The notes: generated from the sequence alone by a model not told the origin. 64,000 nucleotides of DNA from Opitutia bacterium (GCA_050506795.1 JBJHCF010000004.1:32001-96000), one strand, 5' to 3'. Counted from the stretch's first letter, positions 16,790 to 48,912 are shown. Translations and numbers: made by a program.

Positions 16790-16882
16790 GGAGAGATGGC
16801 TGAGTGGCCGAAAGCAGTGGTTTGCTAAACCGCCGTACCGCCAAAAGCGGTACCGAGGGTTCGAATCCCTCTCTCTCCGCCA
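16790..16882 (+). tRNA. tRNA-Ser(GCT)
   Basis: GGAGAGA/TCTCTCC acceptor stem, anticodon arm gtggt-ttGCTaa-accgc, long variable arm, GGTTCGAATCC T-loop, encoded CCA. Confidence 0.97.
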
Positions 16883-16884
16883 TT
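16857..16884 (+). repeat. attL core, gggttcgaatccctctctctccgccatt
   Basis: Identical to 48885-48912. Confidence 0.95.
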
Positions 16885-16941
16885 TGTGATGGGCTTTTGC
16901 CTTAGATTTGCCAAAATGGAATGGCAAATCTGAGAAAAACC

Positions 16942-18282
16942 ATGGCAAAACCTAAGTTCAAGATCACCCCGTTCACCAACCCCAGCGGCCAGCGCGTTTA
17001 CCGTCTGTCTGGCACGCTCAACGGCAAGAGGATCCGTGAGAATTATCCGACTCGCCCCGAAGCCGTTGCAAAGCGTCAGGAATATGAGGTCGAGTGGCTC
17101 AACGACCATCCCGAGGGCCGCACGATCTGGACCACCTTGACTCCTGAGGAGAATCGCGACGCGGTCACCGCAATGAATTCCCTCAAGATGAATGGCGCTC
17201 CCTACTCGCTCAGCTTCGCCGTCAGTTACTGCCTGGAGAACTACCGGCCGCCGGAACAGGAGAAATCGATCAGCGAGGCAGCGGACGAGTATGTCAAGAA
17301 GCGGGACCGCGACTGCGTTCGCGAATTCATCTCCCAGGCGCAATTTCGCTCGATCAAATCCGAGATGCTTTGGCTCAAGAGCAAGTTCGGGAGCACGCCG
17401 GTTTCGGCCATCACCGTGGAAAAATTCCGCGACTACCTCGAAACTCCGCGCAACCGGCCGCGCAGCCGTCTCGTGAAAAAGGAGGTCACCGCTCCCAAGA
17501 CCTGGAACAACCGTCGGGGCCTTCTCTCGACCTTCTGTCTGTTCTGCGTCGAGCGCGGTTACCTCGCGCAAAATACGATCGCGAAGGTTCCCCAATTCAA
17601 GATCAACGGTCGCAAGTCCATGGCGAAAACGCTAACCGTCGATCAGGTCAACGAGCTGATGGAATACCTCGAAGCCTATGACGGGTCACCTATCCGCCGC
17701 CTCAAGGAGCCCCAGCCCGCCGGCTTCCTGGTTCCCTTCTTTGCTCTCGCTCTCTTCGCCGGCATTCGTCCGGATGCGCTCTACGGCGAAATGGGTAAGC
17801 TCCAGCCGGAAGACATCGACCTGAACATGGGCGTTGTCCGGGTTCGGCCCGAAGTCTCGAAGACCAACGAAATGCGCGTGGTGGCCATTCAGCCAAATCT
17901 TCGGCTGTGGTTGGAGAAATATCCGGTGGAAAAGTTTCCGCTTCTCCCGGGAAAGAACATCGTTCGCATCCTCTCCGAGGTCCGCCAGGAACACAAGATC
18001 GGCCATGACGTTCTCCGGCACACTTACATTTCGATGCTGGTCGGCGCTTTTCGTTCGGTCGGCGACGCCGCGCTCCAAGCAGGCAATTCCGAGGCGGTGA
18101 TTCGCAAGCACTACCTCGATTTGAAGTCGGTGGAGGAGGCCGATCAGTTTTGGCAGATCATTCCTGCCGGGACTGAGCTTCCCAAGAACTTCAAGAAAAA
18201 GGACGGTCGATACGCCTTTTTCAACAAACCGGAGAAGGACTCCGAAGGCGCAGAAGAAGCTGAAGAGCTGGCGTCGGTCTAG
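16942..18282 (+). CDS. tyrosine recombinase/integrase
   Basis: FAGIRP (R), SKT (K), HDVLRH, AGNS, KHY (Y); alternative ATG at 16921. Confidence 0.93.
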   Translation: MAKPKFKITPFTNPSGQRVYRLSGTLNGKRIRENYPTRPEAVAKRQEYEVEWLNDHPEGRTIWTTLTPEENRDAVTAMNSLKMNGAPYSLSFAVSYCLENYRPPEQEKSISEAADEYVKKRDRDCVREFISQAQFRSIKSEMLWLKSKFGSTPVSAITVEKFRDYLETPRNRPRSRLVKKEVTAPKTWNNRRGLLSTFCLFCVERGYLAQNTIAKVPQFKINGRKSMAKTLTVDQVNELMEYLEAYDGSPIRRLKEPQPAGFLVPFFALALFAGIRPDALYGEMGKLQPEDIDLNMGVVRVRPEVSKTNEMRVVAIQPNLRLWLEKYPVEKFPLLPGKNIVRILSEVRQEHKIGHDVLRHTYISMLVGAFRSVGDAALQAGNSEAVIRKHYLDLKSVEEADQFWQIIPAGTELPKNFKKKDGRYAFFNKPEKDSEGAEEAEELASV

Positions 18283-18290
18283 GGATACAA

Positions 18291-18317: not shown

Positions 18318-18321
18318 GCTC

Positions 18322-18492
18322 CTACTTATCCAGCTCCTTCCTGATTCGAATGATGAGGTAAACGATCGTGGTGAGGCCTACGGCGATGCCGACGACCAGG
18401 TGAATGCGGTCGAGCATGACCGTTCCGACGGTGCCGAAGGCGCCGATCCAGACGGGGCGGTCGTGGAGGAGAAAGGCGAGTGCTTCTTTCAT
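18322..18492 (-). CDS. small membrane protein, holin-like
   Basis: 56 aa (MKEALAF...IIRIRKELDK), hydrophobic segments with a charged C-tail; ATGA overlap with upstream gene. Confidence 0.55.
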   Translation of the reverse strand: MKEALAFLLHDRPVWIGAFGTVGTVMLDRIHLVVGIAVGLTTIVYLIIRIRKELDK

Positions 18493-18983
18493 GCGGTCGA
18501 CGTCGAGGGCGTTGGCTGAAAGAGTCCGATCCGGTAACCCCAGTAGAGGAAACCGGCTCCGGCGATGAGGATGAGGGCAACCGCCGGGAACCAGGTCTGG
18601 CCGAAGATCTGCGCGAGGATCGCCATGAGGATGCCGCCGAGGGCGAGCGTAAGGCCGGTTCGAAAGTGCCAGCCGGTGAGAAGGAGACCGCCGATCAGGG
18701 AGAGGCCGCCGAGGATTGTCCAAAGCGACAAGCCAGCAACCGAGGGAACCGCAACGGCGCGACTCTGGCCGGTGGATGTCGTGATTTCGATTTGGTCCCC
18801 TTTCCGTCGAAGCGTGACATGGGCGGGCGTCTCGGGATTGGCGGGCTGGAGCGTGGCCACGGTGGCCGCTGGAAGGCCGTTTGCATCGTGCAGAGTGACG
18901 GTGGCATGGCCTGGCGGCGTGGGCGCGGTCATGCAGCCGCTGAGGGTGGCGGCGAGGAGGAGGAAAAGGAACGCCGGTTTCAT
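18489..18983 (-). CDS. lipoprotein-signal membrane protein
   Basis: LSG-C lipobox; about three C-terminal TM helices. Confidence 0.6.
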   Translation of the reverse strand: MKPAFLFLLLAATLSGCMTAPTPPGHATVTLHDANGLPAATVATLQPANPETPAHVTLRRKGDQIEITTSTGQSRAVAVPSVAGLSLWTILGGLSLIGGLLLTGWHFRTGLTLALGGILMAILAQIFGQTWFPAVALILIAGAGFLYWGYRIGLFQPTPSTSTA

Positions 18984-19071
18984 GCAACCAGCGTGGAGGT
19001 CGCCAGTTCCCCGGGCGAGCCGGAGAATTAGCTAAAATTGTGCATTTTTAACTACTGCGGCCCAAATGGAT

Positions 19072-19947
19072 TCAGAGTTCGTCAAGGGATTGCCTAAGGT
19101 GGCCCAATGTCTCAACTAGGCTTTCAATGCGGTTAAGATCTCGTTCCGAGAACCGCGCATCGTAGAGGGAATTACCGTCTGCCCCATCAATCCGAGTAAC
19201 CTCAACGGTTAAAACCAAATCGTCGCGATCCCGCGGAGCACTTGCCCACGGTCCGAACATGTTGGGTGAGAGCCTCCAATTGGCTGACTCGCCCGGTTCA
19301 AGTCCTCCCCGAATTGAGTAGTTAAAGGACTCGTCGACCCAAGGCACCGCTCTGCCTGGGGTGGCCAAGACCCCTTGGAAATATGCGCGAGAGATTGCAT
19401 GGCTTGTCTCATTCCGGACCGATAGCTCGATTACAGGATCACGAGTGAAGCCTGTCTCGCTGAATGAAAACCGAGCACTCTCGACAACAAAAGCACGTAA
19501 GCTCTGGCGATCGGACTCGGCTTTTTGCTTCTTCTCCTCCAATTGCTCAAGTTCATTGCGAATATCCTCAATCCTGCGCATGAGGCCCTCACGCTCACGC
19601 TGACGCCTTTCCTCAGCCCGCTGACGTTCGCGTTCGCGCTCTTCTTCGAGGATTCGTTCTCCGGCGGCTAAAATTTCGTCTACTGTTTTCCCGTCGAGGC
19701 GCTCACGCATCCGCTGCTCGGCTGACTCGGGGTTCGCGGCCAAGGAGAAGAGGTTCTCACCTTCAAAAGCAATTGCCAAGAGAGCTGCATCAAACTTCTC
19801 CTGCTCTTCCTCCGAAAGCGAGGCCTTAGCGCGTTCGAGGGAACGTTCCATTGCTGCCTCCGAAGAACCGTCGATGCGGCGAGAGTCACCGCACGCGGTT
19901 AACAGGCATAGTGAAATGAGGGGGCCAAGAAACAAAAGGATTCTCAT
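19072..19947 (-). CDS. lipoprotein, DUF6694-like (probable moron)
   Basis: LTA-C lipobox, IDGSSE motif, coiled coil, beta-rich C-domain; visibly more AT-rich than neighbours. Confidence 0.65.
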   Translation of the reverse strand: MRILLFLGPLISLCLLTACGDSRRIDGSSEAAMERSLERAKASLSEEEQEKFDAALLAIAFEGENLFSLAANPESAEQRMRERLDGKTVDEILAAGERILEEERERERQRAEERRQREREGLMRRIEDIRNELEQLEEKKQKAESDRQSLRAFVVESARFSFSETGFTRDPVIELSVRNETSHAISRAYFQGVLATPGRAVPWVDESFNYSIRGGLEPGESANWRLSPNMFGPWASAPRDRDDLVLTVEVTRIDGADGNSLYDARFSERDLNRIESLVETLGHLRQSLDEL

Positions 19948-20179
19948 CAGATGTTTGGATTCTGGTTAAGGGACCTACCATGCTCTCCGGATGACCGTCA
20001 AAGGAAAAGGGATCCATCAAGCTGGGGCGGCATCGCCGGGGCGGAGCCCTGGGAGATAGGAGGCGGAGCCGTGTCTCTGCGACCGGGGCCGATCGTCCTC
20101 GCCCGAATGCCGATGAGACCTTTGGCAGAAATCGCGCTGCCATGTTTCACCCCTTAGAAGCAAATTGCGGCTGTAAGGA

Positions 20180-21490
20180 TCAGGCGCGGCCGAGGGTGAC
20201 GTTGTCGTAGTAGAGCGGCGTGTTGGTCTGGATCAGCGAGCCGAGATGGATCGTGTCGAAGGGGCCGGGAGCGTAGGCGAGATTTGTTCCGTTTGGGTCG
20301 AGCTTTCCATCGACGTAAACGTCCAGGCTGCTGTGACGGATAATCACCTCGAACTGATGCCAGCCACGGGAGCGCGGGGCGTCGAGCTGGATCCACCCTG
20401 ATCCGCCAACGTTGCGGAATTGGTATTTCGGGAGGCTGTAAGTCCCGGCAGTGACGGTGTTGTGAAGGCCGGCGGCGAAGATCACGAAAGAGTTGTCGCG
20501 GCGAAGCTCGGCGTATTCGCGGCCGGACTTTGGGTCGCTGGAGTCGTAGGGATCGTAGAAGCGGAAGGACCATTTTAGCGGCGCAGCATCGGTTGCGGAG
20601 ATCGGGTCGAACTGGGTCTTGCGGAGGCCGCCGGAGGAGAAGAGAACCAGGTTACCGGTCGCGAGGTTTTGCGCCGTAGCGACAGGAGCGCCGTCGGCGG
20701 CGCCGTAAGGCGTGTAGCTACCGTCTGGTCGCCACCTTGGGAGAGTCCATCCAGAGGGGCCTTTGTCTCCTTTCTCGTAGGAGATGATGTAGCTGTTATC
20801 GGCGGGCTCGAACCACATGAAGATGTCGTCCCGGCGGAAGCTGGCTCGGTTGTTGAAGAGCCCGTTGTAGTCCCAGGTTCCGTTGCCCTCCTCGGGAGTG
20901 ATGAAGCCGGTGACTTCAAGTGTGCTTCCCGGATAGGCGTTCGGGTCACGATCGAGGATCGAGACCGGGTTTTGGTTGTGCCACGGTTGCGAAGGCTCGG
21001 TCTCGGGCCAGGCCGCGTTAAAGGTGACGGGATTGTCGAGGTCGTAGATCTGAAATGTTTCGAGGAAATGCGGCCAGCGGAGGTCGATCATATCAACCTC
21101 GGCGGACCAGAGCATCGTGTCGTCGGGTTCCCCAGTGACGTGGAGGGATAACGCGCCGGGTGCGTCAGGCGCGGGAATAAGCGAAACTTCGCCACCGCTC
21201 CCGACCGGGCCAAGCTTTTGCTGGGCGCTCAACGAGATCACACCGGCGTCGTTGCGGGCAAGAACGAGAATTGATGCTCCGTAGGTGGTCGTGAAGGCCT
21301 CCGTGCGACCGGTGACGCGGATGCTCAGCAAACGCACCGCCCCGGCCGGGATGGTGAGGCGGTGGCGACCGGAGATAAGGAGTTCGGTCGCCTCGGTGCC
21401 ATAGCTCACGCCATGGAACTGGATTGGTTTTGTGGGCGTGCTGGCGGGAACAACCTCGGGCGGGCGCGGTGGAATGAGCGGCGGGAACAT
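20180..21490 (-). CDS. putative virion spike/adhesin with C-terminal ConA/LamG-like beta-sandwich
   Basis: Late-operon position; beta-rich; GWHQFEVII...DVYVDG...YYDNV pattern. Confidence 0.5.
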   Translation of the reverse strand: MFPPLIPPRPPEVVPASTPTKPIQFHGVSYGTEATELLISGRHRLTIPAGAVRLLSIRVTGRTEAFTTTYGASILVLARNDAGVISLSAQQKLGPVGSGGEVSLIPAPDAPGALSLHVTGEPDDTMLWSAEVDMIDLRWPHFLETFQIYDLDNPVTFNAAWPETEPSQPWHNQNPVSILDRDPNAYPGSTLEVTGFITPEEGNGTWDYNGLFNNRASFRRDDIFMWFEPADNSYIISYEKGDKGPSGWTLPRWRPDGSYTPYGAADGAPVATAQNLATGNLVLFSSGGLRKTQFDPISATDAAPLKWSFRFYDPYDSSDPKSGREYAELRRDNSFVIFAAGLHNTVTAGTYSLPKYQFRNVGGSGWIQLDAPRSRGWHQFEVIIRHSSLDVYVDGKLDPNGTNLAYAPGPFDTIHLGSLIQTNTPLYYDNVTLGRA

Positions 21491-21539: not shown

Positions 21540-21833
21540 TCAGAGGAGTTGGGTGATTCGGAGAATCGCGTCGGCGGCTGTGGCGCGGATGAATCTGGCC
21601 TTGGTGTAGAGTTCCCGGGGCCAGAGCACTGCGCCTCCTCCGACCGGGAAGTAGTGGCCGTGATTGATGGTCGGCGTCGAGCCGTCGAAGGTCACGCGGA
21701 CGGGTCCGTTGTCGACGGAGACGAGAATTTGCCAGGTGTCCGAATGGAGGGCTGGCAACGCCACGGAGGCGCCCGACACCGCAACCGCGATGTCGGGGCC
21801 TTGTGGGTTTGGTTTAACCAGGTGGGCGCTCAT
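21540..21833 (-). CDS. small beta-rich putative structural protein
   Basis: 97 aa (MSAHLVK...ITQLL) directly after the major capsid gene; C-terminal part of track ORF 21540..22349. Confidence 0.6.
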   Translation of the reverse strand: MSAHLVKPNPQGPDIAVAVSGASVALPALHSDTWQILVSVDNGPVRVTFDGSTPTINHGHYFPVGGGAVLWPRELYTKARFIRATAADAILRITQLL

Positions 21834-21844: not shown

Positions 21845-22762
21845 TCAGGTGACGCTGACCCGGCGGGCGCAAACCTTGGAGGTTACCTTGATGTCTTCGG
21901 TCCAATCCACCGCGAGGATGTCCGAGCGGTTGCTTTCGGCGCGGTAGATCCGGACGATGTCCACTCCCCCGCCGCGGGTGCGGAAGGTTTTCATGAACGA
22001 GGGATCGTAGACGCTCGGCGCTGCCTGGGCGATGAACAGGTAAAGCTCCGAGCCGATGATGTTGACGGCGTTCTTCGCCTTGCCGGGCTTTGCCGTGTCG
22101 GCGGACATGACGCCGACGCGGATGTCCAGGTTCGGGTTGAGCAGAAGGCTCGCGAACTGGGTCAGGGTGACGCCGACGCTGGCCGCTCCCGGGAAGCGTT
22201 TCACCACGGCCGGGTTGTGCCGGATGCGGCGCCACGCCGGAAGACCGATCGCCATGCGATTGGGCATCTGGCCGGTCTGGGTGGCCAGCTCTTCGATGAG
22301 TTGGTCGAGCTCGGCGACCGGGTCGTTGGTGTTGCTCGCGCCGTCCCATTGCCCCATGCCGCTGACGGCGGGAACGCTGGAAGCGGCGATCGAAAAGACC
22401 TTCGCTTCGTGGGCGACCTTGGCCCCGGAAACGAGGGTCCGGGTCTTGGCCTTTTCGAGGCCGAGCGGGTCGCCTTCTCCCGCTTGCCGGCGCTCGTGGT
22501 CGTCAATGGCGATTTCGAGCGCGTTCGGGTTGCAGTTGAAGAACGGATCCTCGGCTTCGAACTCCAGCCGGCGGGCGGGACCGCCGATGGCGCGGCGCGT
22601 ATCCGGGTTCTGGAACGCGTTTTTGTCGGAGAAGTCCTTGTATTGCCCGTTGGCGGACTGGACAACGACTTCCGGCGCGAGGAAGCTGGCGAGGGACGGC
22701 GAGCCGTCCTGCGAGAGCCCTCGGGCGTAGTTGGTGAGGGTGATGTTGAATTTAGAGGACAT
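21845..22762 (-). CDS. major capsid protein (HK97 fold inferred)
   Basis: 305 aa; follows protease and decoration genes; LTNYARG...LAPEV, WD...DPV, MPNRMAI patterns. Confidence 0.8.
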   Translation of the reverse strand: MSSKFNITLTNYARGLSQDGSPSLASFLAPEVVVQSANGQYKDFSDKNAFQNPDTRRAIGGPARRLEFEAEDPFFNCNPNALEIAIDDHERRQAGEGDPLGLEKAKTRTLVSGAKVAHEAKVFSIAASSVPAVSGMGQWDGASNTNDPVAELDQLIEELATQTGQMPNRMAIGLPAWRRIRHNPAVVKRFPGAASVGVTLTQFASLLLNPNLDIRVGVMSADTAKPGKAKNAVNIIGSELYLFIAQAAPSVYDPSFMKTFRTRGGGVDIVRIYRAESNRSDILAVDWTEDIKVTSKVCARRVSVT

Positions 22763-22814: not shown

Positions 22815-23213
22815 TTACGGTGCGATGAGGACGGCCTCGATCTTCTCTTCGGCGACACCGCCCTCCAGCGCCATGGCAACGCGTGGCGTGGTCGGTGCGT
22901 CGCTGCTGGCGACGAAGGCAACTTCGTCGTTGTCTTCGAAAAGACCGAGAAGCGTGCCGGTCTGGGTGACCGGGCCGAAGAGCTTCACGCGGACGGTTCC
23001 GGAGAAGCCTCCCCGCGCCGGGGCGACGGTGACTTGCTCACCGGCTTTCCCGCCTTTGAGAAGGACGCCAAACGGCGTCTGCTCGGCGTTGGTCAGAAGA
23101 GTGATCTCGTTCTGACCGGTGACGATGACTGGATAGCCCTCCTTGCCGGTAAGATCGATGGCTGCCTTGAATGGCAGGATAGCGTTTTCGCGAACAATGC
23201 CTACTTGGCTCAT
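22815..23213 (-). CDS. capsid decoration/cement protein (DUF2190-like)
   Basis: 132 aa, beta-rich, between protease and capsid; PFGVL, VAMALEGG. Confidence 0.65.
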   Translation of the reverse strand: MSQVGIVRENAILPFKAAIDLTGKEGYPVIVTGQNEITLLTNAEQTPFGVLLKGGKAGEQVTVAPARGGFSGTVRVKLFGPVTQTGTLLGLFEDNDEVAFVASSDAPTTPRVAMALEGGVAEEKIEAVLIAP

Positions 23214-23231: not shown

Positions 23232-24350
23232 TTAGTTGAACAGTTCCGGGGCCTCGGCCTGGGCCTTGGCGAAGATGGTGTCGAAGGTGGCGGCCGGGTG
23301 AGCGGCGCGGAGATCGTTCAGCTTTTTGAGCTGAAGGGCCTCCTGGTTCTGGACGGGGCCGGTGCCCGCATCGCGTGCGGTGACGATGGTCGCGAAGGCG
23401 GGATTGACCGGAAGGGCCTCCAGGGCCTGCACGGCTTTCCCTTCATCGCGGATGAGAGCGTCGACCCAAAAGGTCTTGGCGTTTTCGTCCTTTGGCGCGA
23501 CGCGGCCGGCCTGAATGGCGGCATCGACGCGGGCCTCGGCTTTGGCTCGGATGGCGTTGTCACGCTCGGTTTCGAGAGCGGTCAGGCGTTCCTTCGCCGC
23601 CGCGAGATCGGCGCTGCTGGATTGCAGCGCGGTAACTTTGGCTTTCACCTGGGCGATGATGTCGGCTTCCTCCGTGGCGGAGGCCTCGACCAGCCCGAGT
23701 GTCACCAGATTCTTCAGTAGTTCTTTCATGGTTACGTGGTCTTCAGTTGCGGGTTGTGGATCTTGTCCCTTGGCGAACAAGGGCTGGATTCGTTTGAAGG
23801 CGGCGCGGTTTACAAGTCCGCCCATGTTGGTTTCGCTCCCGATGACGCGGCCTGCGGCATCGAGGAGAAAAGTCGGAGAAAAGCGCCGAAAGGCGCGGTC
23901 CTGGATGGCTTTCTTGCCGACGCCGGACCATTCGATCTTGGCGCGAACGCCGCCGGTCTTCGGGTCGTCGCCTCCCCAGAAGATTTTGACCGGCCATGCC
24001 GCGGCCTCGCGGTCGTCGTGATTGAAGTCGAAGAAGGGCTTGTCCTCGGCCCCGGCTGCGGCCAGCGCAAGCTGGCGGGTTAGCCAATCGGAGAGCGCGG
24101 TTGCCGTGGCCTGGCTGACCTCCACGTCGAGTTCGACCGGTTTGCCGGCGCGGGAGGCGCGAATGCGGTGACGGCCGGGCGGCATGTATTGGATCTCTTC
24201 GGGAAGTTGGTCCTCGGCCGGCTCTGGAAGAGCGACGGAGAATGCAGCTTTTACGGGCTCGCCCTTGGGCGGCGCGTAGGCCATGACGCCGTCGGGGCCT
24301 TCGGTCCATCCGGGATTGGAGGTTGGGGAGTTGTGATCGTGTGCGGTCAT
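23232..24350 (-). CDS. Mu gpI-like prohead protease with C-terminal scaffold
   Basis: MPPG, FDFNHD, AAAW, IEWS, FRRFSPTF, GLVNRAAF; helical C-terminus with VDAAIQAGRVAP. Confidence 0.85.
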   Translation of the reverse strand: MTAHDHNSPTSNPGWTEGPDGVMAYAPPKGEPVKAAFSVALPEPAEDQLPEEIQYMPPGRHRIRASRAGKPVELDVEVSQATATALSDWLTRQLALAAAGAEDKPFFDFNHDDREAAAWPVKIFWGGDDPKTGGVRAKIEWSGVGKKAIQDRAFRRFSPTFLLDAAGRVIGSETNMGGLVNRAAFKRIQPLFAKGQDPQPATEDHVTMKELLKNLVTLGLVEASATEEADIIAQVKAKVTALQSSSADLAAAKERLTALETERDNAIRAKAEARVDAAIQAGRVAPKDENAKTFWVDALIRDEGKAVQALEALPVNPAFATIVTARDAGTGPVQNQEALQLKKLNDLRAAHPAATFDTIFAKAQAEAPELFN

Positions 24351-37505: not shown

Positions 37506-37508
37506 ATT

Positions 37509-40661: not shown

Positions 40662-40761
40662 GTTCCTGAATTCGGGTTTGAGCGGCCTTTTACCCAAGGC
40701 CGTTTTCCAACTGCTTCGGCGTATCGACGCCGGATCTTTCTCCGAATCCAGGAACTTTTTC

Positions 40762-42048
40762 ATGAATGCAGCTATACGTTTTTCCTTATTTTCATTTCCT
40801 TCTTTTCTAGCGACCGTCCTCGTGGCGGCGGCTTCTCCAGCTTTCGGCGAGGAGGCCGTCCTGACTGTGGACGAACTGGTCGCGGAAGTGCTCGGGAGCA
40901 ATCCTGAACTCGCGATCTACGAGGCCGAAATCGCCGCGGCCCGCGGCGAGCGGCGTCAGTCGGGGCGATGGGCGAACCCGGAGTTTTCCTTGGAGGCGGG
41001 TCATCAGCGGATCCGGGGGAGCGAAGGGGCCGGAGCGGCCGAGGGCTTGGCCTGGGCCGCATCGGTGGCTCAGCCGATCGAGTTTCCGGGGCGGCTGGCG
41101 CTGCGCAAGGCGATCGCCGACCGGAACACGGAGTTGGCCAATTTGGGCCTGGAAAACTTCCGACGGGTGCTGGAGAACCAAGTTCGTTCGCTGGCCTATT
41201 CGCTCTATGCGGCACGAGGGTCGGCGGATGCCGCCGACGATGTGGCCGCCCGCGCCCGGGAGTTGACGCAGGTTGTGCTTCAGCGCGAGGTCGGCGGTAT
41301 CTCCCCGTTGCTGGAAAGCCGCATTCTGGAGAGCAGCGCCCTGACCTTGGAACAGCGGCGGCAGGAGGCGCGGCGCGTTTATCAACGGGCCTTAATCGCG
41401 CTGAACCAGTTGCGGGACGCGCCCGCCGAGACGCCGGTGAGACTGGCGGAGGCTCCCTTGGAATTCCCCGAACTTCCTCCCGTGCCGGAGCTCGTCAGCG
41501 GCGCCTGGAGAAATTCGTTTGAGGCGCGGGCGAGGCAGGTGGAGTTGGAGCAGCAGGGCTTTCGGGTGCGCCTGGAGAGGAATGAGCGCTATCCAACCGT
41601 CACGGCGGGGCCTTTTATCTCGCAGGATAGAGCGGGCGAGAAGGAGACAGTGGCCGGGGTGAGCGTTTCGTTCGCTCTGCCGTTATGGGATCGAAACGAG
41701 GGCAATATCGATGCCTCGCGGGCGCGGCTACGGCAGGCTGAGGCGTCGCTGCTCGTGACGCGGCGCGAACTGGAACGGCGCGTAGTGGAGCGGGCATTGA
41801 ACTATCAGTCCGCGAGGCAGGCCCTGGCGGAGTTGAGACCGGAGGCGATCTCTGAGTTCGAGGAGGCGGCCGAACTGGCGGAGCGTCATTATCGGTTAGG
41901 GGCAATCCCGATCAGCACGTATTTGGAGATGCAAACCGCCTACCTCGACGCTCTGGACGCTGTGCTCGGCCTGCGGCAGCAAACGCTGGAGAGCCGACTG
42001 GAACTGGAAATTTTGACGGGAAACTTTGAGAAGGGAACTGAACGATGA
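40762..42048 (+). CDS. czcC: TolC-family outer-membrane factor (CzcC-like)
   Basis: NPELA, QPIEFPG, ALPLWDRNEGNI, YRLGAI; precedes MFP and HME-RND genes. Confidence 0.82.
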   Translation: MNAAIRFSLFSFPSFLATVLVAAASPAFGEEAVLTVDELVAEVLGSNPELAIYEAEIAAARGERRQSGRWANPEFSLEAGHQRIRGSEGAGAAEGLAWAASVAQPIEFPGRLALRKAIADRNTELANLGLENFRRVLENQVRSLAYSLYAARGSADAADDVAARARELTQVVLQREVGGISPLLESRILESSALTLEQRRQEARRVYQRALIALNQLRDAPAETPVRLAEAPLEFPELPPVPELVSGAWRNSFEARARQVELEQQGFRVRLERNERYPTVTAGPFISQDRAGEKETVAGVSVSFALPLWDRNEGNIDASRARLRQAEASLLVTRRELERRVVERALNYQSARQALAELRPEAISEFEEAAELAERHYRLGAIPISTYLEMQTAYLDALDAVLGLRQQTLESRLELEILTGNFEKGTER

Positions 42049-42812
42049 ATTCTATTTTGAAAATGATTTTTTTGAGCGCTGCCACGATAGGCATTGCGCT
42101 GGCGGTAAGCGGGTGTGCGAAGACAGAGGGTGCCGATCAGGATCATGAGGCGGAGCAGGCGCAGGATCATTCCGGTAACTGGGTGTTCGACGAGGGCCGT
42201 GGCGTCAGGCTGACCGAGGCCGGGAGGAATGTTGCTGGCATCGAATTGGCGGAAGCGGTTTTCGCCGAAGGCGGCAACGGCACGATAACCGCGATGGGAC
42301 AGGTTTTCGCCGTGGACCGGAGCCGCGGCACGGCGCGGGCAAGTGTGGCCTTGTCGGCGCGGCGGGCAAATGGAATTGAGCCAGGCGCGCCAGTTAACGC
42401 TGGAACACGACCGGGCGACTTGCACCTTGCCGGGCACGTAGAGCGAGTCGATCGACAGGCGGTTCGGGTGACCGGTCAGGTCGAGGTGATCGTGAGTGTC
42501 CCCGCAGCTGAGGCTCACTTGCGCGAAGGCTCGTTTCTAAGCTTCAGCTTCGATCAACCAGGCGCGCAGGGCGACGAGATGTTACGCATCCCCGCCTCGG
42601 CTCTTCTTCCGACGGCTCGCGGTGATTTCGTTTACGTGGTGAATGGAAACCATTTTTTTCGGTCCCCGGTGCAAACGGGGCGGAAAAGCGGCGATTTCAT
42701 CGAGATCGAAGACGGGTTGTTCGAAGGCGACGTGGTGGTGTCGGCGGGTAAAAAGCATCTCTGGCTGATCGAGCTGCAGGCGATCAACGGAGGTGAAGCC
42801 TGCGCCGACTGA
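42045..42812 (+). CDS. czcB: RND periplasmic adaptor (short CzcB-like lipoprotein)
   Basis: VSG-C lipobox, IPASAL, IEIEDGLFEGDVVV. Confidence 0.72.
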   Translation: MNSILKMIFLSAATIGIALAVSGCAKTEGADQDHEAEQAQDHSGNWVFDEGRGVRLTEAGRNVAGIELAEAVFAEGGNGTITAMGQVFAVDRSRGTARASVALSARRANGIEPGAPVNAGTRPGDLHLAGHVERVDRQAVRVTGQVEVIVSVPAAEAHLREGSFLSFSFDQPGAQGDEMLRIPASALLPTARGDFVYVVNGNHFFRSPVQTGRKSGDFIEIEDGLFEGDVVVSAGKKHLWLIELQAINGGEACAD

Positions 42813-42830
42813 CACTAAGAGGACCACGGA

Positions 42831-45800
42831 ATGCTGAACAAACTAATTGAGTTCTCCATCCGGCAGCGCGGCTTCGTTCTCCTGCTGACGGTCGTATTGA
42901 TCGTCGCCGGGATCTGGTCAGCCTACCATCTCCATGTGGATGCGGTGCCGGATATCACCAGCACGCAAGTGCAGATCAACACGGCAGTGCCCGCGTTGGC
43001 GCCCGAGGAAATCGAGCAACTGGTGACATTCCCCATCGAGAGCCGCATGTCGGGCATGCCGGGCCTCGTGGAGTTGCGCTCGCTTTCGCGTCCGGGTTTG
43101 TCGCAGGTGACGATGACATTCGCCGACGGCTCGGACGTATATCGTTTGCGGCAACTCGCGATGGAGAGGCTTCAGGAGGCCATGGATGAGATTCCGGCCG
43201 GCCTTCAGCCGACGCTTGCGCCGATCAGCACGGGGCTGAGCGAAATCTTTTACTATGCGGTCGGTTTTGCCGAGGACGCACCGAATGTGCCGGAGAGCGA
43301 ATACGAGCGACTGCTGGAGCTATCGCAGATCCAGGAATATACGGTAAAGCCGCTCTTACGCGCGACGGCGGGCCTCGCCGAGGTGAACACTTCCGGAGGT
43401 TACGAGAAAAAGATTCTTGTTCAGCCCGATCCCGTGCGCCTCACCCAGCTAGGTCTCACTTTCGACGAGTTCGCCGAACGGCTGAAAGGCGGCTTCGTCA
43501 ATGTCGGCGGCGGCCTGCTGGAGGTGGGCGGTGAACAAGTGGTGATCCGTTCGAATTCGAGGATGACCCGAAGCGAGGAAGTTGCAGGCCTGCCTTTGAA
43601 GTTCGGGGCGCAGGTGAATCCGATTCTGGTGGGCGACGTGGCCGAAATCGTGGTTGGGTCGAGCATCCGGACCGGCGCGGCCACCATCAATGGAGAAGAG
43701 GCGGTGCTGGGAGCGGCGATCATGATGGCCGGGGAAAACAGTCGCGTCGTAGCCCGCGCGGTGAGCCAGCGTCTGGCGGAGATCCAAAATCGCATGCCGG
43801 AAGGTGTGGTTATTACCCCGCTTTACGATCGGGGCGATTTGATCGACGCCACGATCTCGACCGTGCGCCGCAATCTCACTCATGGAGCCGTTCTGGTCAT
43901 CGTCGTTTTGTTCGCGATGCTGGGCAACATTCGGGCGGCGCTGATTGTCGCGGCGGTCATCCCGCTTTCCATGCTGGCGGCATTCATTGGCATGACACTG
44001 GCGGGCGTCTCGGGAAATCTGATGAGCCTTGGCGCGATCGACTTCGGGCTCATCGTGAGCGGCGCGGTCATTGTCGTGGAAAACTGCATGCGACGGCTCG
44101 GCCTCCTTCGCCACCGGATCGGGAGAGATCCCCGCGCCGAGGAACGGCGGGCCGAGGTTCTCGCCGCTTCACGTGAGGTCGCCAAACCGATGTTCTTTGG
44201 TGTGGCCATCATCACCATCGTCTATGTGCCGATCCTGGCGCTGACGGGCATCGAGGGGAAAATGTTTCACCCGATGGCGCTGACTGTCATGTTCGCCCTA
44301 ACGGGCTCGCTGCTTTTGGGCCTGACTTTCGCGCCCGCGCTGAGTTCCTGGGTGATCGCCGGGAGAATGACCGGCGAAGATAGTTTCCTCGTCCGCGCTT
44401 TGCGCTGGATCTACCATCCGATTCTTCGATTCGCGGTTCGCTTTCCTGTGGCCGTGGCGGTGGGAGCGGCGGCTCTTTTCGCTCTAGCGGTGCTGACGTT
44501 TCTGAGGTTGGGGGCGGAGTTTATCCCGCAGCTCGACGAAGGCTCGCTCGCCGTGCAGATGGTCCGCAGCAACAGCGTCGGCATTCAAACGTCGTTGGAG
44601 CTGCAACAGCAGGCGGAGCGCCTGCTGCTGGAGGAGTTCCCCGAGGTCCGACAGATCTTCTCGCGCATCGGGACGGCGGAGATCGCCACCGATCCGATGG
44701 GCCCGAACGTTTCCGATACGTATGTTCTGTTTCATCCGCAGGAAACCTGGCGCGAGATCAACGACCGGCGAGCACGGAAGGACGATCTGGTTGCCATGAT
44801 GCAGCGGGTCCTCGACCGGAATATTCCCGGACAAGTGGTTTTGTTTTCCCAACCGATCCAGCTTCGTTTCAACGAAATCATGGCCGGCGCCCGCGCCGAC
44901 ATCGCTGTGAAAATTTTCGGTGAGGATCTGGAAACGCTGGAGGAGCAGGCGTTCGCCGTCCGCGATGTGCTACGCACTATTCCCGGCGGAGGCGACGTGG
45001 AATTCGACGCCATGGGGCGGGTGCCGATGCTGGAGATCGTGCCGGATCGGGAGGCGATGCGGCGACTGAATATTCATCCCGACGAAATCAACCGCGTCAT
45101 CCAGACCGCACTGGCGGGAAGAGAGGCGGGACTTTTCATCGATGGGAACCGGCGATTTCCGGTCGTCGTGCGGCTGCCCGAAGCCCAACGCCACGATTTC
45201 GACGCGATCAGGGACCTGCCGGTGCGGACGGATGGCGGCGGCATTGTCCGGCTGGGCCAGGTTGCCGACTTGCGAGTCGAGGACCGCGTGGGAACAATCA
45301 CGCGGGAAATGGCTGAGCGTCGGGCGGCCATCCTGATCAATCTGCGCGGGCGCGATACCGAAAGCTTCGTGCGCGAAGCGGAGGCGCGCTTGCGCGATGA
45401 AGTGGTCTTGCCTCCCGGATACGCGATCGAATTTGGCGGGCAGTTTGAAAACCTGCAACGGGCGCGGGCCCGGCTGGCTGTGGTTGTTCCGATTGCATTG
45501 TGCCTGATCTTTTTCCTAATCTTTTCCTCCACGGGAAGCATGCAGCGGTCTCTCGTCATCTTTACGGGCGTGCCGTTTGCGGTGACTGGCGGGGTCTTCG
45601 CCCTCTGGCTGCGAGACATGCCGTTCAGTATCTCGGCCGGGATCGGCTTTATCGCTTTGAGCGGGATCGCCGTGATGGATGCGCTCGTGCTCGTGAACTG
45701 CTTCAACGACTTGCGGCGAGAGGGCAGACCGTTGCGGGAGGCCGTGATGGAGGGGGCGATGATGCGCCTGCGGCCCGTGTTGATGACCTCGCTGGTCGCC

Positions 45801-46055
45801 GGCCTTGGCTTTGTGCCGATGGCATTCGCTACCACCCTTGGCGCCGAGGTGCAGCGTCCGCTGGCGACGGTTGTGATTGGCGGCATCCTCTCCTCGACTC
45901 TTTTGACACTTCTCGTCCTGCCGGGCCTCTATCTAATCACCGAGCGTCGCGACAATCGCAATACCGGAAAACTTTCAGAGAACGCAACGTCGGCTTCCGT
46001 CGTCAGTCACGACCATACAGAAGCAATCATTTCCCAACAAAAGACCACAAAATGA
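42831..46055 (+). CDS. czcA: heavy-metal efflux RND transporter (CzcA/CusA family)
   Basis: DAVPDIT, NLMSLGAIDFG, EGKMFHPMA, EFIPQLDEG, RLRPVLMT, EVQRPLATVVIGG. Confidence 0.92.
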   Translation: MLNKLIEFSIRQRGFVLLLTVVLIVAGIWSAYHLHVDAVPDITSTQVQINTAVPALAPEEIEQLVTFPIESRMSGMPGLVELRSLSRPGLSQVTMTFADGSDVYRLRQLAMERLQEAMDEIPAGLQPTLAPISTGLSEIFYYAVGFAEDAPNVPESEYERLLELSQIQEYTVKPLLRATAGLAEVNTSGGYEKKILVQPDPVRLTQLGLTFDEFAERLKGGFVNVGGGLLEVGGEQVVIRSNSRMTRSEEVAGLPLKFGAQVNPILVGDVAEIVVGSSIRTGAATINGEEAVLGAAIMMAGENSRVVARAVSQRLAEIQNRMPEGVVITPLYDRGDLIDATISTVRRNLTHGAVLVIVVLFAMLGNIRAALIVAAVIPLSMLAAFIGMTLAGVSGNLMSLGAIDFGLIVSGAVIVVENCMRRLGLLRHRIGRDPRAEERRAEVLAASREVAKPMFFGVAIITIVYVPILALTGIEGKMFHPMALTVMFALTGSLLLGLTFAPALSSWVIAGRMTGEDSFLVRALRWIYHPILRFAVRFPVAVAVGAAALFALAVLTFLRLGAEFIPQLDEGSLAVQMVRSNSVGIQTSLELQQQAERLLLEEFPEVRQIFSRIGTAEIATDPMGPNVSDTYVLFHPQETWREINDRRARKDDLVAMMQRVLDRNIPGQVVLFSQPIQLRFNEIMAGARADIAVKIFGEDLETLEEQAFAVRDVLRTIPGGGDVEFDAMGRVPMLEIVPDREAMRRLNIHPDEINRVIQTALAGREAGLFIDGNRRFPVVVRLPEAQRHDFDAIRDLPVRTDGGGIVRLGQVADLRVEDRVGTITREMAERRAAILINLRGRDTESFVREAEARLRDEVVLPPGYAIEFGGQFENLQRARARLAVVVPIALCLIFFLIFSSTGSMQRSLVIFTGVPFAVTGGVFALWLRDMPFSISAGIGFIALSGIAVMDALVLVNCFNDLRREGRPLREAVMEGAMMRLRPVLMTSLVAGLGFVPMAFATTLGAEVQRPLATVVIGGILSSTLLTLLVLPGLYLITERRDNRNTGKLSENATSASVVSHDHTEAIISQQKTTK

Positions 46056-46510
46056 ATACACCATACGTCATGAAACTAAAGAACGCACTTCTCGTATCTT
46101 TCGCATTGATGCTTGCGGGAGGAGCGGTCCTTGCCGCCGCTGAAAAGAGACAGCCCGGGCCGAACGGCGGGCTACTGCTGAAAACGGAGCCTCGAGCCGA
46201 GTTTTTTGTCAATAAGGACCGAAAGATCGAGATCACCTTTCTCGACGCTGAGCTAGAACCGGTGCCCCTGGAGCAACGAAACGTGCGGGTGACGGCAATG
46301 GCCCCTTCAGGACGAAAAATCCTGGAGTTTGACCGGAAGGAAAACGTCTTTATTTCCAAGGACCCCCTGCCGGACGGCGACGGCTACACCGTCGTTGCCC
46401 AGATCTGGCAGAAGGCGGATGACCGGCCGGAGAACTTCCGGATTGTGTATGAAGACTACGTCTGCGGCGGGTGCGACCTGGTGGAGTACGCCTGCATCTG
46501 CGATGACTGA
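46052..46510 (+). CDS. exported putative metal-binding protein
   Basis: Signal peptide, GPNGG motif, C-terminal CGGC...CIC; ATGA overlap with czcA. Confidence 0.7.
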   Translation: MNTPYVMKLKNALLVSFALMLAGGAVLAAAEKRQPGPNGGLLLKTEPRAEFFVNKDRKIEITFLDAELEPVPLEQRNVRVTAMAPSGRKILEFDRKENVFISKDPLPDGDGYTVVAQIWQKADDRPENFRIVYEDYVCGGCDLVEYACICDD

Positions 46511-46530
46511 GATCTGACACCGATCGCGCG

Positions 46531-48684
46531 ATGAGCGAAATACCCGCAGGCCGGGCTGGGAAAGAGACAGTCCTCGAAATCGAGGGGATGGATTGCTCCG
46601 AAGAAGTGAAGCTACTGGAGAATGTTCTCGGCGGTGTGGCGGGTGTCTGCTATGTGCGGGCGAATCTTGTAATGAACCGGATCACCGTTATTCATGACGA
46701 GCCGGTTGAAATATCGGATCTGGTTGCAGCGATCCAAACCACCGGTATGAAAGCCCACCCACCAAAACGGGCGGGCACGGACCGGCTTGCGCGCCGCAGT
46801 GATCGGGGGCGATTGATGGCGGTCGCGCTGTCGGGCGCGCTCGCCATCTCCGGGCTTGTTCTGCAATGGACAGCCGCGGCCCCGGAGGCGGTGAGAATTG
46901 CGCTGTTTGCCGGAGCGATAGCTTCGGGCGGCTGGTATATCGTCCCCAAGGCGGTGGGAGCGGCCCGCCGGATGACTCCCGATATGAACCTGCTGATGAC
47001 GGTGGCTGTGGCAGGCGCGGCCCTCATCGGCGAATGGGGAGAAGGGGCCATCGTCGTCTTTCTGTTCGGACTCGCCGAATTGCTCGAAGCGATGAGCGTG
47101 AGTCGAGCTCGCCGGGCCATTCAGTCGTTGATGGCACTCAGTCCCCAAACGGCGCTGGTGAAAAGGGGTGAGCGATTCGAGGAACTGCCTGCTGAGTCGG
47201 TTCAAATCGGCGAAGTGATCGCCGTGCAGAACGGCGCCCGGATTCCGCTCGACGGGGTGGTCCTCTCCGGTTCGTCAGCCGTCGATCAAGCAGCGATCAC
47301 CGGTGAATCGATGCCAGTTTCAAAATCTTCAGGCGACGAGGTGTTCGCCGGAACGCTCAATGGCGAGGGCGCGATGGAGATCCGCGTCACCCGCGAGGCG
47401 TCCGGTTCGACACTGGCGAAGATCATTAAGCTGGTCGAGGAAGCGCAGGAGCAAAAAGCGCCATCGCAACGGTTCGTCGATGTATTTGCGAAATATTACA
47501 CGCCGATTGTGATGCTCCTGGCGGGGGCGGTTTTTCTCCTGCCGCCTCTGCTCCTCGGCGCACCGTGGGAGACTTGGTTTTACCGATCCCTCGTTCTGCT
47601 CGTGATCGCCTGCCCGTGCGCGCTCGTCATCTCTACCCCTGTTTCCATCGTTTCGGCGTTGACCGCCATGGCCCGCCGGGGAGTTCTCGTTAAAGGAGGC
47701 GCTTTTCTCGAATCGGTGGGAAAACTGCGGGCATTGGCCGTGGACAAGACCGGAACGATCACGCAGGGACGACCGACGGTGACGGAGGTGATTTCCCTCA
47801 ATCGCAACCAGGAAGGGGATGTCCTCCGAATCGCGGCGGCGATCGATGTGCATTCGCAGCACCCGCTGGCAAAAGCGGTGGTCGAGACAGCCGAACGGCG
47901 CGGCATTACCTATCCCCGTGGCGCGGATTATCGCGCCCGGACCGGGAGTGGGGCCGAGGCGACGATCGATGGCCATCGTTACTTTGTCGGCAACCATCGC
48001 CTCGCGCATGAATTGGGCGTCTGTTCGCCGCAGGTAGAGGGGATTCTCGCAGAGATCGAACAACGCGGTGAATCCGTAGCGGTTGTCGGGCACATGCCCC
48101 ACGACGATTGCCCGGGCGACATCCTCGGCGTCGTGGCGCTGGGAGATGCCATTCGGCAGGATGCTGCCGAGGCGGTACGGGCACTTCATCAGGCGGGGGT
48201 TCGCAATGTCGTGATGTTGAGCGGCGACAATCAGAAGACAGTGGACGCGATCTCGCGGCAAGTCTGCATCGACCAGGCCTGGGGGAACCTGCTGCCGGGC
48301 GACAAAATCGCCCGCGTGCGGGAGCTGGTGAAACGGCATCACCACGTCGGCATGATTGGCGATGGGGTGAACGATGCTCCCGCCATGGCTGCCGCAACAG
48401 TTGGAATCGCCATGGGCGCGGCGGGCACGGATACCGCGATTGAGACGGCGGACGTTGTCCTGATGGAAGACGACCTGAGCAAGGTCGCCGAAACCATCCA
48501 CCTCGGCCGGCGGACCGTCAGAATCATTCAATTCAACATCGCTTTGGCTATTGGAGTCAAAGCTCTCTTTCTGGCGCTCACGATTGCCGGTTATGCCAGC
48601 CTATGGCTGGCCATAGCCGCCGATACCGGCGCGACGTTAATTGTCATTTCTAACAGCCTGAGGTTGCTGCGAACTCGAGAATGA
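46531..48684 (+). CDS. heavy-metal P1B-type ATPase (CadA/ZntA-like)
   Basis: HMA domain GMDCSEE, TGES, CPC, DKTGT, HP, GDGVNDAP, ADTG. Confidence 0.93.
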   Translation: MSEIPAGRAGKETVLEIEGMDCSEEVKLLENVLGGVAGVCYVRANLVMNRITVIHDEPVEISDLVAAIQTTGMKAHPPKRAGTDRLARRSDRGRLMAVALSGALAISGLVLQWTAAAPEAVRIALFAGAIASGGWYIVPKAVGAARRMTPDMNLLMTVAVAGAALIGEWGEGAIVVFLFGLAELLEAMSVSRARRAIQSLMALSPQTALVKRGERFEELPAESVQIGEVIAVQNGARIPLDGVVLSGSSAVDQAAITGESMPVSKSSGDEVFAGTLNGEGAMEIRVTREASGSTLAKIIKLVEEAQEQKAPSQRFVDVFAKYYTPIVMLLAGAVFLLPPLLLGAPWETWFYRSLVLLVIACPCALVISTPVSIVSALTAMARRGVLVKGGAFLESVGKLRALAVDKTGTITQGRPTVTEVISLNRNQEGDVLRIAAAIDVHSQHPLAKAVVETAERRGITYPRGADYRARTGSGAEATIDGHRYFVGNHRLAHELGVCSPQVEGILAEIEQRGESVAVVGHMPHDDCPGDILGVVALGDAIRQDAAEAVRALHQAGVRNVVMLSGDNQKTVDAISRQVCIDQAWGNLLPGDKIARVRELVKRHHHVGMIGDGVNDAPAMAAATVGIAMGAAGTDTAIETADVVLMEDDLSKVAETIHLGRRTVRIIQFNIALAIGVKALFLALTIAGYASLWLAIAADTGATLIVISNSLRLLRTRE

Positions 48685-48884
48685 TCCTCAGATGCGGAGG
48701 AGAACGACGACCAGCTGTGGGGACGGACGAGACCTTGATCTTTAAAGCTGATTTGCCACTTATTTGCCAATTTAGAAGATTTTTGCTGCTTTTTTATGCA
48801 TCTAGCTGCGCCGACATTTATTCGTAAGATACTGATAAATGCACCTTAAAGACATCTACGTGCAGTATTAGGAAAACTACTATC

Positions 48885-48912
48885 GGGTTCGAATCCCTCT
48901 CTCTCCGCCATT
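48885..48912 (+). repeat. attR core (duplicated tRNA-Ser 3' end)
   Basis: 28-bp exact copy of 16857-16884. Confidence 0.95.

Follow-up and report, generated by a model that had tools for sequence, protein, structure and literature searches.

What is an integrated element that encodes a complete phage head and no tail: a phage that has lost its tail, a virus whose tail goes unrecognised, or an element built to travel without one of its own? The question is raised by a 64,000-nucleotide stretch of DNA from an Opitutia bacterium (GCA_050506795.1, JBJHCF010000004.1:32001-96000; hereafter the window, with positions counted from its first letter). Within it lies an island of 32,056 bp from attachment (att) site to att site, carrying an integrase, a Mu-type head and packaging module and metal-resistance genes. 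The original prediction, made from this DNA alone, proposed a distinct capsid-forming satellite or tail-less transfer element, with a cleanly deleted prophage as the alternative. Comparative genomics supports the former idea and the placement of the island, from its gene content and that of its relatives, in a recurrent, selectively maintained family of tail-less, head-encoding elements of the Opitutales (Verrucomicrobiota). We lean towards the view that these elements would act as full-size, Mu-headed functional analogues of capsid-forming satellites, with tails supplied by a co-infecting phage; the tail borrowing itself we infer.

Boundaries and head genes of the island

The island is inserted at the only tRNA gene in the window, where a scan against Rfam returned nothing besides that tRNA. 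Its boundaries are as follows.

16790-16882, plus strand: tRNA-Ser(gct), the integration target (ARAGORN; Rfam tRNA, 56.8 bits)
16857-16884: attL, exact 28-nt core (direct repeat D9, 100% identical to 48885-48912)
16921-18282, plus strand: tyrosine integrase, convergent with the head operon (phrog_1, E 7.7e-24)
48885-48912: attR, exact 28-nt core, the second copy of repeat D9

The exact att repeats that had been predicted are present, and the first copy consists of the last 26 nt of the tRNA-Ser gene and two further bases. A genome of the same genus (G406) has the integration site of the island empty: both flanks lie there 213 bp apart with a tRNA-Ser(gct) gene in between, positions 1-1999 of its locus L122 corresponding to window 51049-49051 at 87% identity and positions 2213-3426 to window 16881-15667 at 92%. 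Because of the exact repeats and this empty site, we regard the island as a discrete, site-specifically integrated element. The predicted integrase is borne out by its PHROGs match, its score against Pfam Phage_integrase (22.2 bits) being under the Pfam cut-off, and integrases 48-63% identical to it occupy the same position in G392, L050, L011, L013, L094, L095 and L097. No island open reading frame (ORF) matched a transposase in Pfam or PHROGs. Contigs of the sequencing run in which the window sequence ends at 16849-16884 proved to be the tRNA-Ser genes of other organisms (depth 512 in the bin), and are uninformative on attP or attB.

The head and packaging genes form a single run, listed here in the direction of transcription.

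27389-27889, minus strand: small terminase, terS (phrog_4044, E 1.3e-16)
26019-27392, minus strand: large terminase, terL (Terminase_6N, E 5.9e-23; Terminase_6C, E 4.5e-9)
24637-26019, minus strand: portal, Mu type (PF06074 Portal_Mu, E 1.6e-58)
24347-24640, minus strand: 97-aa ORF with a C-terminal, Cys-rich, Mu-F-like motif (PF04233, 23.8 bits, under cut-off; phrog_115, E 1.5e-10)
23232-24461, minus strand: Mu-type head maturation protease (PF10123 Mu-like_Pro, E 1.2e-15; phrog_328, E 9.7e-20), its true start probably downstream of the first TTG
22815-23213, minus strand: 132-aa scaffold or decoration protein (relatives match phrog_673)
21845-22762, minus strand: major capsid protein (MCP), 305 aa (phrog_1005, E 7.3e-39)

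The coupled head run of the original prediction stands for terS, terL, portal, protease and capsid, all assigned by Pfam or PHROGs, and two of its labels require revision. What had been called gpF resembles the Mu F family solely over a C-terminal motif of about 35 residues and corresponds in alignment to residues 518-551 of the G392 portal (556 aa), itself 54% identical to the window portal. In G392, G347b and G002 the portal itself ends in this motif (541-560-aa portals; L040 3960-5630). The proposed decoration protein exists as a 132-aa ORF, whose relatives match phrog_673, a head scaffolding protein. Altogether the island has its own capsid, protease, portal, terS and terL, in Mu-type families and not in the HK97-type profiles of phage-inducible chromosomal islands of the capsid-forming kind (cf-PICIs).

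As the original prediction had it, the window ORFs submitted to Pfam, PHROGs and NCBIfam matched no tail, neck, baseplate, fibre or endolysin family. A head-tail adaptor or connector was matched by neither Pfam nor PHROGs in the window, and the 12 related elements described below offered no suitable conserved unassigned ORF. Among the scanned ORFs of the phage-like half of the island, none matched an HNH family in Pfam or PHROGs.

Recurrence of the tail-less layout and selection on its head genes

Capsids close to that of the window are spread over several collections. IMG/VR holds 13 matching loci, 12 at 62-72% identity and one, the tailed L010, at 54%. Of 401 genomes of the class, 19 have a capsid match at E <= 1e-20, mostly merely 28-36% identical; four further genomes of the same order carry the capsid at 64-70%. 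Species-representative genomes contributed nine capsid loci and metagenomes 46, several of which duplicate IMG/VR loci. The named hosts are Opitutae/Opitutia, Opitutales, Puniceicoccaceae, Coraliomargarita, Opitutaceae and Oceanipulchritudo metagenome-assembled genomes (MAGs), and one short capsid-bearing contig was binned as Microbacteriaceae.

We surveyed the DNA downstream of the capsid gene in 28 non-duplicate loci with a capsid identity of 62% or higher and at least about 1.7 kb of DNA after the capsid (the window, G392, G347a, G347b, G225, L001, L004, L006, L011, L013, L050, L053, L055, L077, L081, L082, L085, L086, L092, L094, L095, L097, L101, L109, L112, L115, L118 and L119). A tape measure, tube, sheath or baseplate gene was found by Pfam and PHROGs in none of them, and no close relative in this set has a tail operon at this position. 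The common layout is instead a capsid gene, a gene for a lipoprotein or transmembrane (TM) protein of about 170-190 aa and a gene for a one-TM protein of about 56-80 aa, followed either, sometimes after a few accessory genes, by a convergent integrase with a tRNA or tmRNA gene, or by a cargo block. An integrase homologue converges on the capsid gene from 1.6-3.6 kb away in 10 of the 28 loci (eight full length, fragments in L077 and L085), and a one-TM homologue was detected by tblastn in 15. This tail-less synteny recurs at different att sites, beside eight kinds of RNA gene: tRNA-Ser(gct), tRNA-Ser(gga), tRNA-Ser(cga), tRNA-Glu(ttc), tRNA-Leu(cag), tRNA-Met(cat), tRNA-Pro(ggg) and tmRNA. The island is no one-off deletion, the same layout being found again and again in relatives with capsids 62-72% identical.

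Complete elements lead to the same picture. Bounding repeats of 25 nt delimit 36.5 kb in G392 and 37.1 kb in G347b, compared with 28 nt and 32.0 kb in the window; no att repeats were found within the DNA examined for G347a, L050, L053 and L011. The 69 ORFs of the whole G392 and G347b elements gave no tail-category match in PHROGs, their matches falling in head, packaging, replication, regulation and methyltransferase or other defence-type groups, and the IMG/VR contigs G001 (33.5 kb) and G002 (32.0 kb) consist of the same core plus cargo. In an all-against-all BLAST comparison, the capsid recurs in all 12 other elements, terS, terL, portal, protease and scaffold/decoration protein in 11, the one-TM protein and the integrase in eight, and the Xis/AlpA-like protein in five. 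The genome G347 holds two members of the family (C1 at ~2.78 Mb and ~3.19-3.22 Mb; L041-L044, L060, L061), one at tRNA-Ser(cga) and the other at tRNA-Glu(ttc). Identity is 99% between the two capsids and 56% between the integrases, cargo and parts of the early regions differ, and in both the integrase lies beside xis and not after the capsid gene.

The head genes of the family are under purifying selection. Pairwise dN/dS ratios (Nei-Gojobori, on codon alignments) are given below for unsaturated pairs, with dS of 0.09-0.72.

Major capsid protein: 0.052 (G347a/G347b), 0.035 (G002/L003), 0.014-0.046 in other close pairs
Portal: 0.06-0.18
terL: 0.07-0.14
terS: 0.04-0.07
Protease: 0.06-0.22
Scaffold/decoration protein: 0.29-0.43, less constrained

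With values of 0.01-0.22 for MCP, portal, terL, terS and protease, there is no relaxation of selection on these genes. Medians across all pairs, many of them saturated, are 0.09-0.34.

Missing tails and rival explanations

Could a tail be hidden among the few genes that follow the capsid? The original prediction counted only five between the capsid and the convergent integrase, and these five were confirmed.

21540-21833, minus strand: p97, small protein belonging to a viral family without a name (three unnamed Uroviricota clusters in the atlas, at a score of 0.96; no family match in the Pfam, PHROGs and NCBIfam scans)
20180-21490, minus strand: p436, a near-orphan (no Pfam, PHROG, NCBIfam or phage match)
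19072-19947, minus strand: 291-aa DUF6694 lipoprotein, a moron-type accessory gene (PF20404, E 1.2e-9; phrog_7468, E 3.7e-69)
18489-18983, minus strand: 164-aa lipoprotein with C-terminal TM helices (lipobox and TM segments visible in the translation; no family match in the profile searches run)
18322-18492, minus strand: 56-aa single-TM protein, family-conserved and holin-like by shape only (translation)

If p97, p436 or other orphans formed a short, podovirus-like tail or spike, the island would be a complete virus in need of no helper. Both proteins have features that would suit such a role: p97 resembles unnamed viral protein clusters, and p436, beta-rich at its N-terminus, follows the capsid in the same operon, with weaker atlas leads (0.88) to unnamed viral clusters. 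Their distribution points the other way. Homologues of p436 number just two, at 83-85% identity, with no relative in IMG/VR, and none of p97, p436 and the 291-aa lipoprotein has a homologue in any of the 12 related elements. Contigs from a pond that are 90-99% alike to the island have 1016 unrelated nt in place of p97 and p436 and skip the gene for the 291-aa lipoprotein, of which 33-39% identical "lipoprotein" genes occur in four unrelated phages. Because these three genes are without homologues in the 12 elements and are replaced or missing in near-identical pond relatives, they are variable cargo and not conserved virion parts. The only family-wide post-capsid genes encode the lipoprotein/TM protein of about 170 aa and the one-TM protein of about 56-80 aa, and no conserved ORF has the size of an adaptor, nozzle or fibre. 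We consider an unrecognised minimal tail most improbable.

The two conserved positions have a different character. At that of the 164-aa lipoprotein, relatives encode a different lipoprotein of 167-191 aa plus a TM protein. The start of the 56-aa gene overlaps the preceding lipoprotein stop by 4 nt, and 8 of the 12 related elements have a one-TM homologue (46-63% identity) after the capsid region. This conserved protein could be a holin; it has no PHROG match, and the enclosing ORF (18322-18987) has no Pfam match. Two further ORFs in the region, of 85 aa (19886-20143) and 84 aa (18326-18580), look spurious because they are Arg/Pro-rich. The pond contigs come from RNA libraries and cover parts of the island, many genes among them, at 90-99% identity; they are not evidence of expression, because contigs cannot show transcription.

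A tailed ancestry for the head module is suggested by a tailed relative. L010, an uncultured IMG/VR virus, has the same gene order (scaffold/decoration protein 41% and terL 43% identical) and has, 6 kb past its capsid gene, a tape measure of 1024 aa and an operon of tail size. Its portal, which belongs to PHROGs family phrog_113 (E 4.3e-15), gave no tblastn match to the window portal at 1e-5, and L010 stands clearly further off, in both terL and portal, than every tail-less member. Relatives of the same class whose capsids are 31-36% identical have Mu Gp36 or Mtd_N nearby. A quick MCP tree recovers a tail-less clade of 19 rows (SH-aLRT 97). By portal and terL, the nearest cultured phages are Akkermansia phage Chantilly, B3/D3112-type Pseudomonas phages and Rhodovulum/Thiobacimonas-type phages, at identities of 27-41% and with full-length genomes of 33-39.6 kb. 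The Mu capsid protein has about the same length as that of the island, and Mu packages about 39 kb. Because the nearest full-length Mu/B3-like genomes are of 33-39.6 kb, elements of 32-37 kb match the expected head capacity, and their sizes would fit heads filled by the elements themselves, with cargo in the room of lost tail and lysis modules.

A number of observations weigh against a maintained family of tail borrowers. The first concern the relatives and their heads. At the base of the tail-less clade, the quick MCP tree does not separate the window, G309 and the tailed L010 from one another. The F-like motif, fused to the portal in relatives, lies in the window in a separate ORF overlapping the portal stop, a split that could be natural, a frameshift or a MAG assembly error. 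The capsid gene is frameshifted in L011/L012 (10001-10898) and split into ORFs of 196 and 88 aa; the MCP is N-terminally truncated in L097, L099, L054 and L101, the first ~106 capsid codons being missing in L097 (34-630) and L099 (3287-3883). A tmRNA-linked copy, L057 (10001-10237), has had its whole head deleted; its early genes, one-TM gene and integrase persist. In both L081 and L109 there is a gene to which PHROGs gives the name "tail assembly chaperone" (phrog_1158, E 1e-32). We did not count it as a tail operon: it is Pfam DUF1353, with no tail genes after it in the available DNA, and belongs to a cassette of two genes, flanked by ORFs that have a repeated stretch of ~130 nt in common. 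After the cassette, L109 has a reverse-strand gene that in L006 directly follows the capsid.

Others concern the missing partner. Our helper search covered tape measure, sheath and Terminase_6N families in five host genomes, other tail families and virulent helpers lying outside its scope, and in four of them (the source genome G000, G392, G347 and G225) it found no PF10145 tape measure, no sheath and no Terminase_6N besides the element's own. A sheath plus tape-measure locus occurs in G309 only, and tblastn with the tail proteins of L010 found nothing in G000 or in any of the loci. No head-tail adaptor or connector came to light, although cf-PICIs, in the available portions of their published descriptions, need these proteins to dock tails; a helper would therefore have to supply the neck too. 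Contig depth in the source sample is 14-20 on the island and 15 on its flank, and because the two are equal the sample gives no indication that the element was excised or replicating there. Finally, the folds of p436 and p97 were not obtained: AlphaFold2 (AF2) gave mean pLDDT values of 33.9 from a 3-sequence alignment of p436 and 34.1 from the single sequence of p97, models that are unusable for fold comparison and that leave some room for the minimal tail, and PDB sequence searches with both proteins returned nothing below E 0.16.

Decayed copies, an absent helper, a quiescent source sample and the existence of a tailed relative are also what could be seen if tailed, Mu-headed Opitutales phages had repeatedly lost their tail and lysis modules, leaving defective, immobile prophage remnants that are perhaps kept for their cargo. 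Such remnants are hard to reconcile with the rest of the evidence. The arrangement of capsid, small membrane genes and integrase-att boundary recurs beside eight different tRNA/tmRNA genes, a tail operon is found in none of the 28 close relatives, att-bounded sizes stay constant at 32-37 kb, and a congener has the empty site. Moreover, purifying selection on the head genes is strong, and includes the pair of copies that occupy different sites with different cargo in a single genome. We therefore judge decay an unlikely account of the family as a whole.

We favor instead, as stated at the outset, elements that complete their own heads and travel on the tails of others. After induction, such an element would be excised through its integrase and the Xis/AlpA-like protein and would replicate autonomously with its own replication genes. 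Full-size heads would assemble from element-encoded proteins, and the element's own terS and terL would package its 32-37 kb genome by a headful mechanism. The particles would gain infectivity only through the neck and tail of a co-infecting tailed phage that fit the element's portal, and the lytic enzyme would probably be taken from that phage too.

Elements without neck and tail genes must take a whole neck-tail complex or use a tail-independent route. Under the second option, heads might be released at lysis and their DNA acquired through competence or vesicle uptake, or the host might have domesticated the heads, as decoys for related phages, for instance. The lack of neck genes and of a resident helper, the conserved membrane proteins encoded beside the capsid gene and the frequent defence cargo would all be compatible with this. 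We nevertheless think it very unlikely: the family has kept integrase, att sites, excisionase, terS and terL, the size of its elements agrees with the capacity of the head, and we know of no precedent for tail-less HK97-fold capsids delivering DNA.

Cargo, replication and comparison with known systems

The metal-resistance cargo that had been predicted was matched in three places.

27964-28506, plus strand: CopZ-N-terminal-type Zn/Fe-S metallochaperone (PF18423 zf_CopZ, E 1.6e-17; NF047645, 139 bits, cut-off 100), inside the phage-like half of the island
40678-46055, plus strand: heavy-metal RND efflux operon with outer-membrane factor, adaptor and CusA/CzcA pump (OEP, E 1.3e-35; ACR_tran, E 6.8e-274; pump TIGR00914, 1185.6 bits, cut-off 701; adaptor RND_mfp, 75 bits, below cut-off)
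46531-48684, plus strand: heavy-metal P1B-type ATPase with HMA domain (E1-E2_ATPase, Hydrolase, HMA; TIGR01525, 599.7 bits, cut-off 346)

The closest DNA match of the island is a mine-tailings metagenome, which is probably its source; this origin fits the metal-efflux cargo. Relatives carry other genes: type I restriction-modification, Mrr and an AAA_15 ATPase in G001, a DUF499/DUF1156/helicase set in G002, DUF499/DUF1156/SNF2-PLD sets in G004 and G347a (with SMODS in G347a), and DUF4007 with a PAPS-reductase-like protein in G347b. The room of a tail operon thus holds exchangeable cargo, metal efflux here and restriction-modification or other defence-type systems in relatives.

Two observations on accessory genes may be recorded. 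One cassette recurs in three elements at different sites (L016 8128-17456, L018 2864-12442, L041 18-11559) and resembles a defence system. Its genes encode a DUF499 ATPase, a DUF1156 methyltransferase and an SNF2-type helicase, with a PLD domain on the helicase in L018 and L041, DUF3780 in L018 only and SMODS/DUF7680 as extras in one. In addition, large secreted-type accessory genes lie inside or just after the head operon of relatives (L004 2447-4468; L011/L012 ~3511-6105; L082 4462-5646; L077 3754-4932; L112 1175-2416), an unusual placement of morons within a head module. Those between terL and portal encode an FG-GAP/TSP3 protein and a BspA-type leucine-rich repeat (LRR) protein, and those after the capsid gene encode LRR/Sel1, FGE-sulfatase-like and TSP3 proteins.

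The early region of the window runs as follows.

29741-30480: ~215-nt repeat, two full and two partial copies (repeat families D1, D2, D3, D13)
31017-31391, minus strand: p124, its C-terminal ~50 aa a conserved DNA-binding-like domain (phrog_66, E 0.0024); 58-62% identical in five relatives
31502-32857, minus strand: AAA_25 replicative helicase-like ATPase (PF13481, E 5e-19; primase/helicase PHROGs)
32644-33666, minus strand: primase-like protein (phrog_2597, E 3.8e-5); 50-63% identical in five relatives
33513-35348, minus strand: family A DNA polymerase (PolA) with 3'-5' exonuclease domain (PF00476, E 3.5e-18; phrog_17, E 1.7e-72)
35355-35579, minus strand: 74-aa excisionase/AlpA-like regulator (phrog_1840, E 6.9e-5; no Pfam match)
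35974-36798, minus strand: PD-(D/E)XK exonuclease (phrog_298, E 5e-23); 72% identical in G002 and G004
36816-37382, minus strand: p188, weak match to a phage replication-initiation family (NF046043, 46 bits, under cut-off); 59-71% identical in G002, G392 and L057
37509-39972, minus strand: p441 and p399, early-region proteins (no family matches); an ORF next to xis in G347a shares 28% identity with p399

An own PolA replisome, as originally proposed, is present in the window in that PolA, primase, helicase and exonuclease are all encoded; it is not a trait of the family, PolA being found elsewhere solely in L050 (74% identity) and in none of five IMG/VR relatives. Replication modules have been swapped among members, G001 having a D5-type primase, a PIF1 helicase and an exonuclease, and G347b a Sak4-like protein, a helicase, a primase and RusA. 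The excisionase/AlpA-like gene is the best conserved of the early genes (72-77% identical in G392, G001, G002 and L057). An HTH_3 repressor is present in relatives, with none identified in the window. The repeats of ~215 nt lie in a poorly coding stretch of 3 kb between p124 and terS, and a hairpin with a 9-bp stem is invariant in both full units. Placed between the replication and packaging modules, they could be an origin, iterons or regulatory RNA; none of the 127 loci retrieved contains the motif, and Rfam has no match to it.

Among known elements, the cf-PICIs come closest in function. According to the available portions of the reports on them, these islands build capsids of their own, package their own DNA into them, release them without tails and acquire the tails of phages, with tail specificity set by their own adaptor and connector proteins (PMC10085698; 10.1101/2025.02.11.637232). 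As far as those portions describe them, the Opitutales family shares with cf-PICIs site-specific integration, an integrase, genes of the primase/replication type, a terS, terL, portal, protease and capsid of its own, and variable accessory or defence cargo; an AlpA/Xis-type regulator, which is putative in the window, and the lack of a recognised tail module or endolysin may be added. The differences, with the same restriction, are as instructive. The cf-PICIs and cf-PISPs are elements of 10-18 kb with a PF05065 capsid and adaptor and closure genes, whereas the island family, at 32-37 kb, is two to three times larger; the original prediction that the island exceeds cf-PICIs in size agrees with 32,056 bp against ~10-18 kb (10.1101/2025.02.11.637232). 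Portal_Mu, Mu-like_Pro, Terminase_6 and a phrog_1005 capsid stand in the family against an HK97/PF05065 capsid with HNH, and head-tail adaptor/connector genes are absent. The family also has a conserved, holin-shaped one-TM gene and, in the window copy, PolA. It resides in Verrucomicrobiota, while cf-PICIs are reported from Proteobacteria and Firmicutes in the available text. By size and by the absence of adaptor/connector and HNH genes, it falls outside the cf-PICIs as those published portions delimit them; by analogy, it may plausibly work as they do all the same. Marine virion-encapsidated integrative mobile elements (VEIMEs) encode no capsid protein.

The source genome carries a second capsid island, split over the ends of contigs C44 (~37000-43912) and C73 (1-12176) (L073/L072), that looks like a more classical cf-PICI-like element. 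It has an integrase, an AlpA/Xis-like gene, a primase/helicase, a weak terS-like gene and an HK97-type capsid (PF05065; phrog_617), followed by two ORFs of unknown function and a helicase-rich cargo block; no tail match was seen.

We put forward, tentatively and at slightly less than even confidence, that the family is an undescribed class of 32-37 kb "head-only" Opitutales satellites, with Mu-type capsids sized for their own genomes, autonomous replication, a neck and tail taken from phages or a tail-independent route, and a freed cargo bay of 10-17 kb. The open full-text literature, with subscription-only work and the original cf-PICI paper outside its scope, yielded no description of Mu-headed, full-size, tail-less elements, and, with the SatelliteFinder and VEIME supplementary tables likewise outside, no Verrucomicrobia satellites beyond VEIME host assignments. 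If the proposal is right, this would be the first lineage of capsid-forming satellites in Verrucomicrobiota and the first with neither a reduction in capsid size nor an adaptor/connector of its own. It would widen the concept of a phage satellite, a third to half of 32-37 kb being given to exchangeable cargo, and would add a route of gene flow among marine, freshwater and mine-tailings Verrucomicrobia, the mine-tailings copy bearing metal efflux and its marine relatives defence systems. It also raises the mechanistic question of how a portal without neck proteins retains DNA and accepts a foreign tail, a question that is experimentally approachable if the strains of the single-contig genomes G392 and G347 are in culture.

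With Mu, B3 and D3112-like phages, the family has in common the set and order of head and packaging genes and a similar size range (33-39.6 kb in the phages). It differs from them in having no transposase, MuB, tail or lysis genes and a tyrosine integrase at tRNA genes, and identities are only 27-41%. Gene transfer agents of the RcGTA type encode tails, have no integrase or att site and carry random host DNA in small heads. What they share with the family is a head and packaging module of phage origin that selection maintains in a bacterial chromosome; the island differs in its integrase, its att sites, the empty site in a congener, the lack of a tail and an att-bounded size that matches full head capacity. 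Lastly, the I55-type tmRNA/tRNA islands mobilised by a jumbo phage share with the family, in the available portion of their description, a tyrosine integrase, a tRNA/tmRNA target, direct repeats, a size of 20-70 kb and variable defence cargo (PMC12772148). In that portion they are described as being without recognisable transfer or replication genes (PMC12772148), whereas the Opitutales family encodes a full head and terminase set and a replisome.

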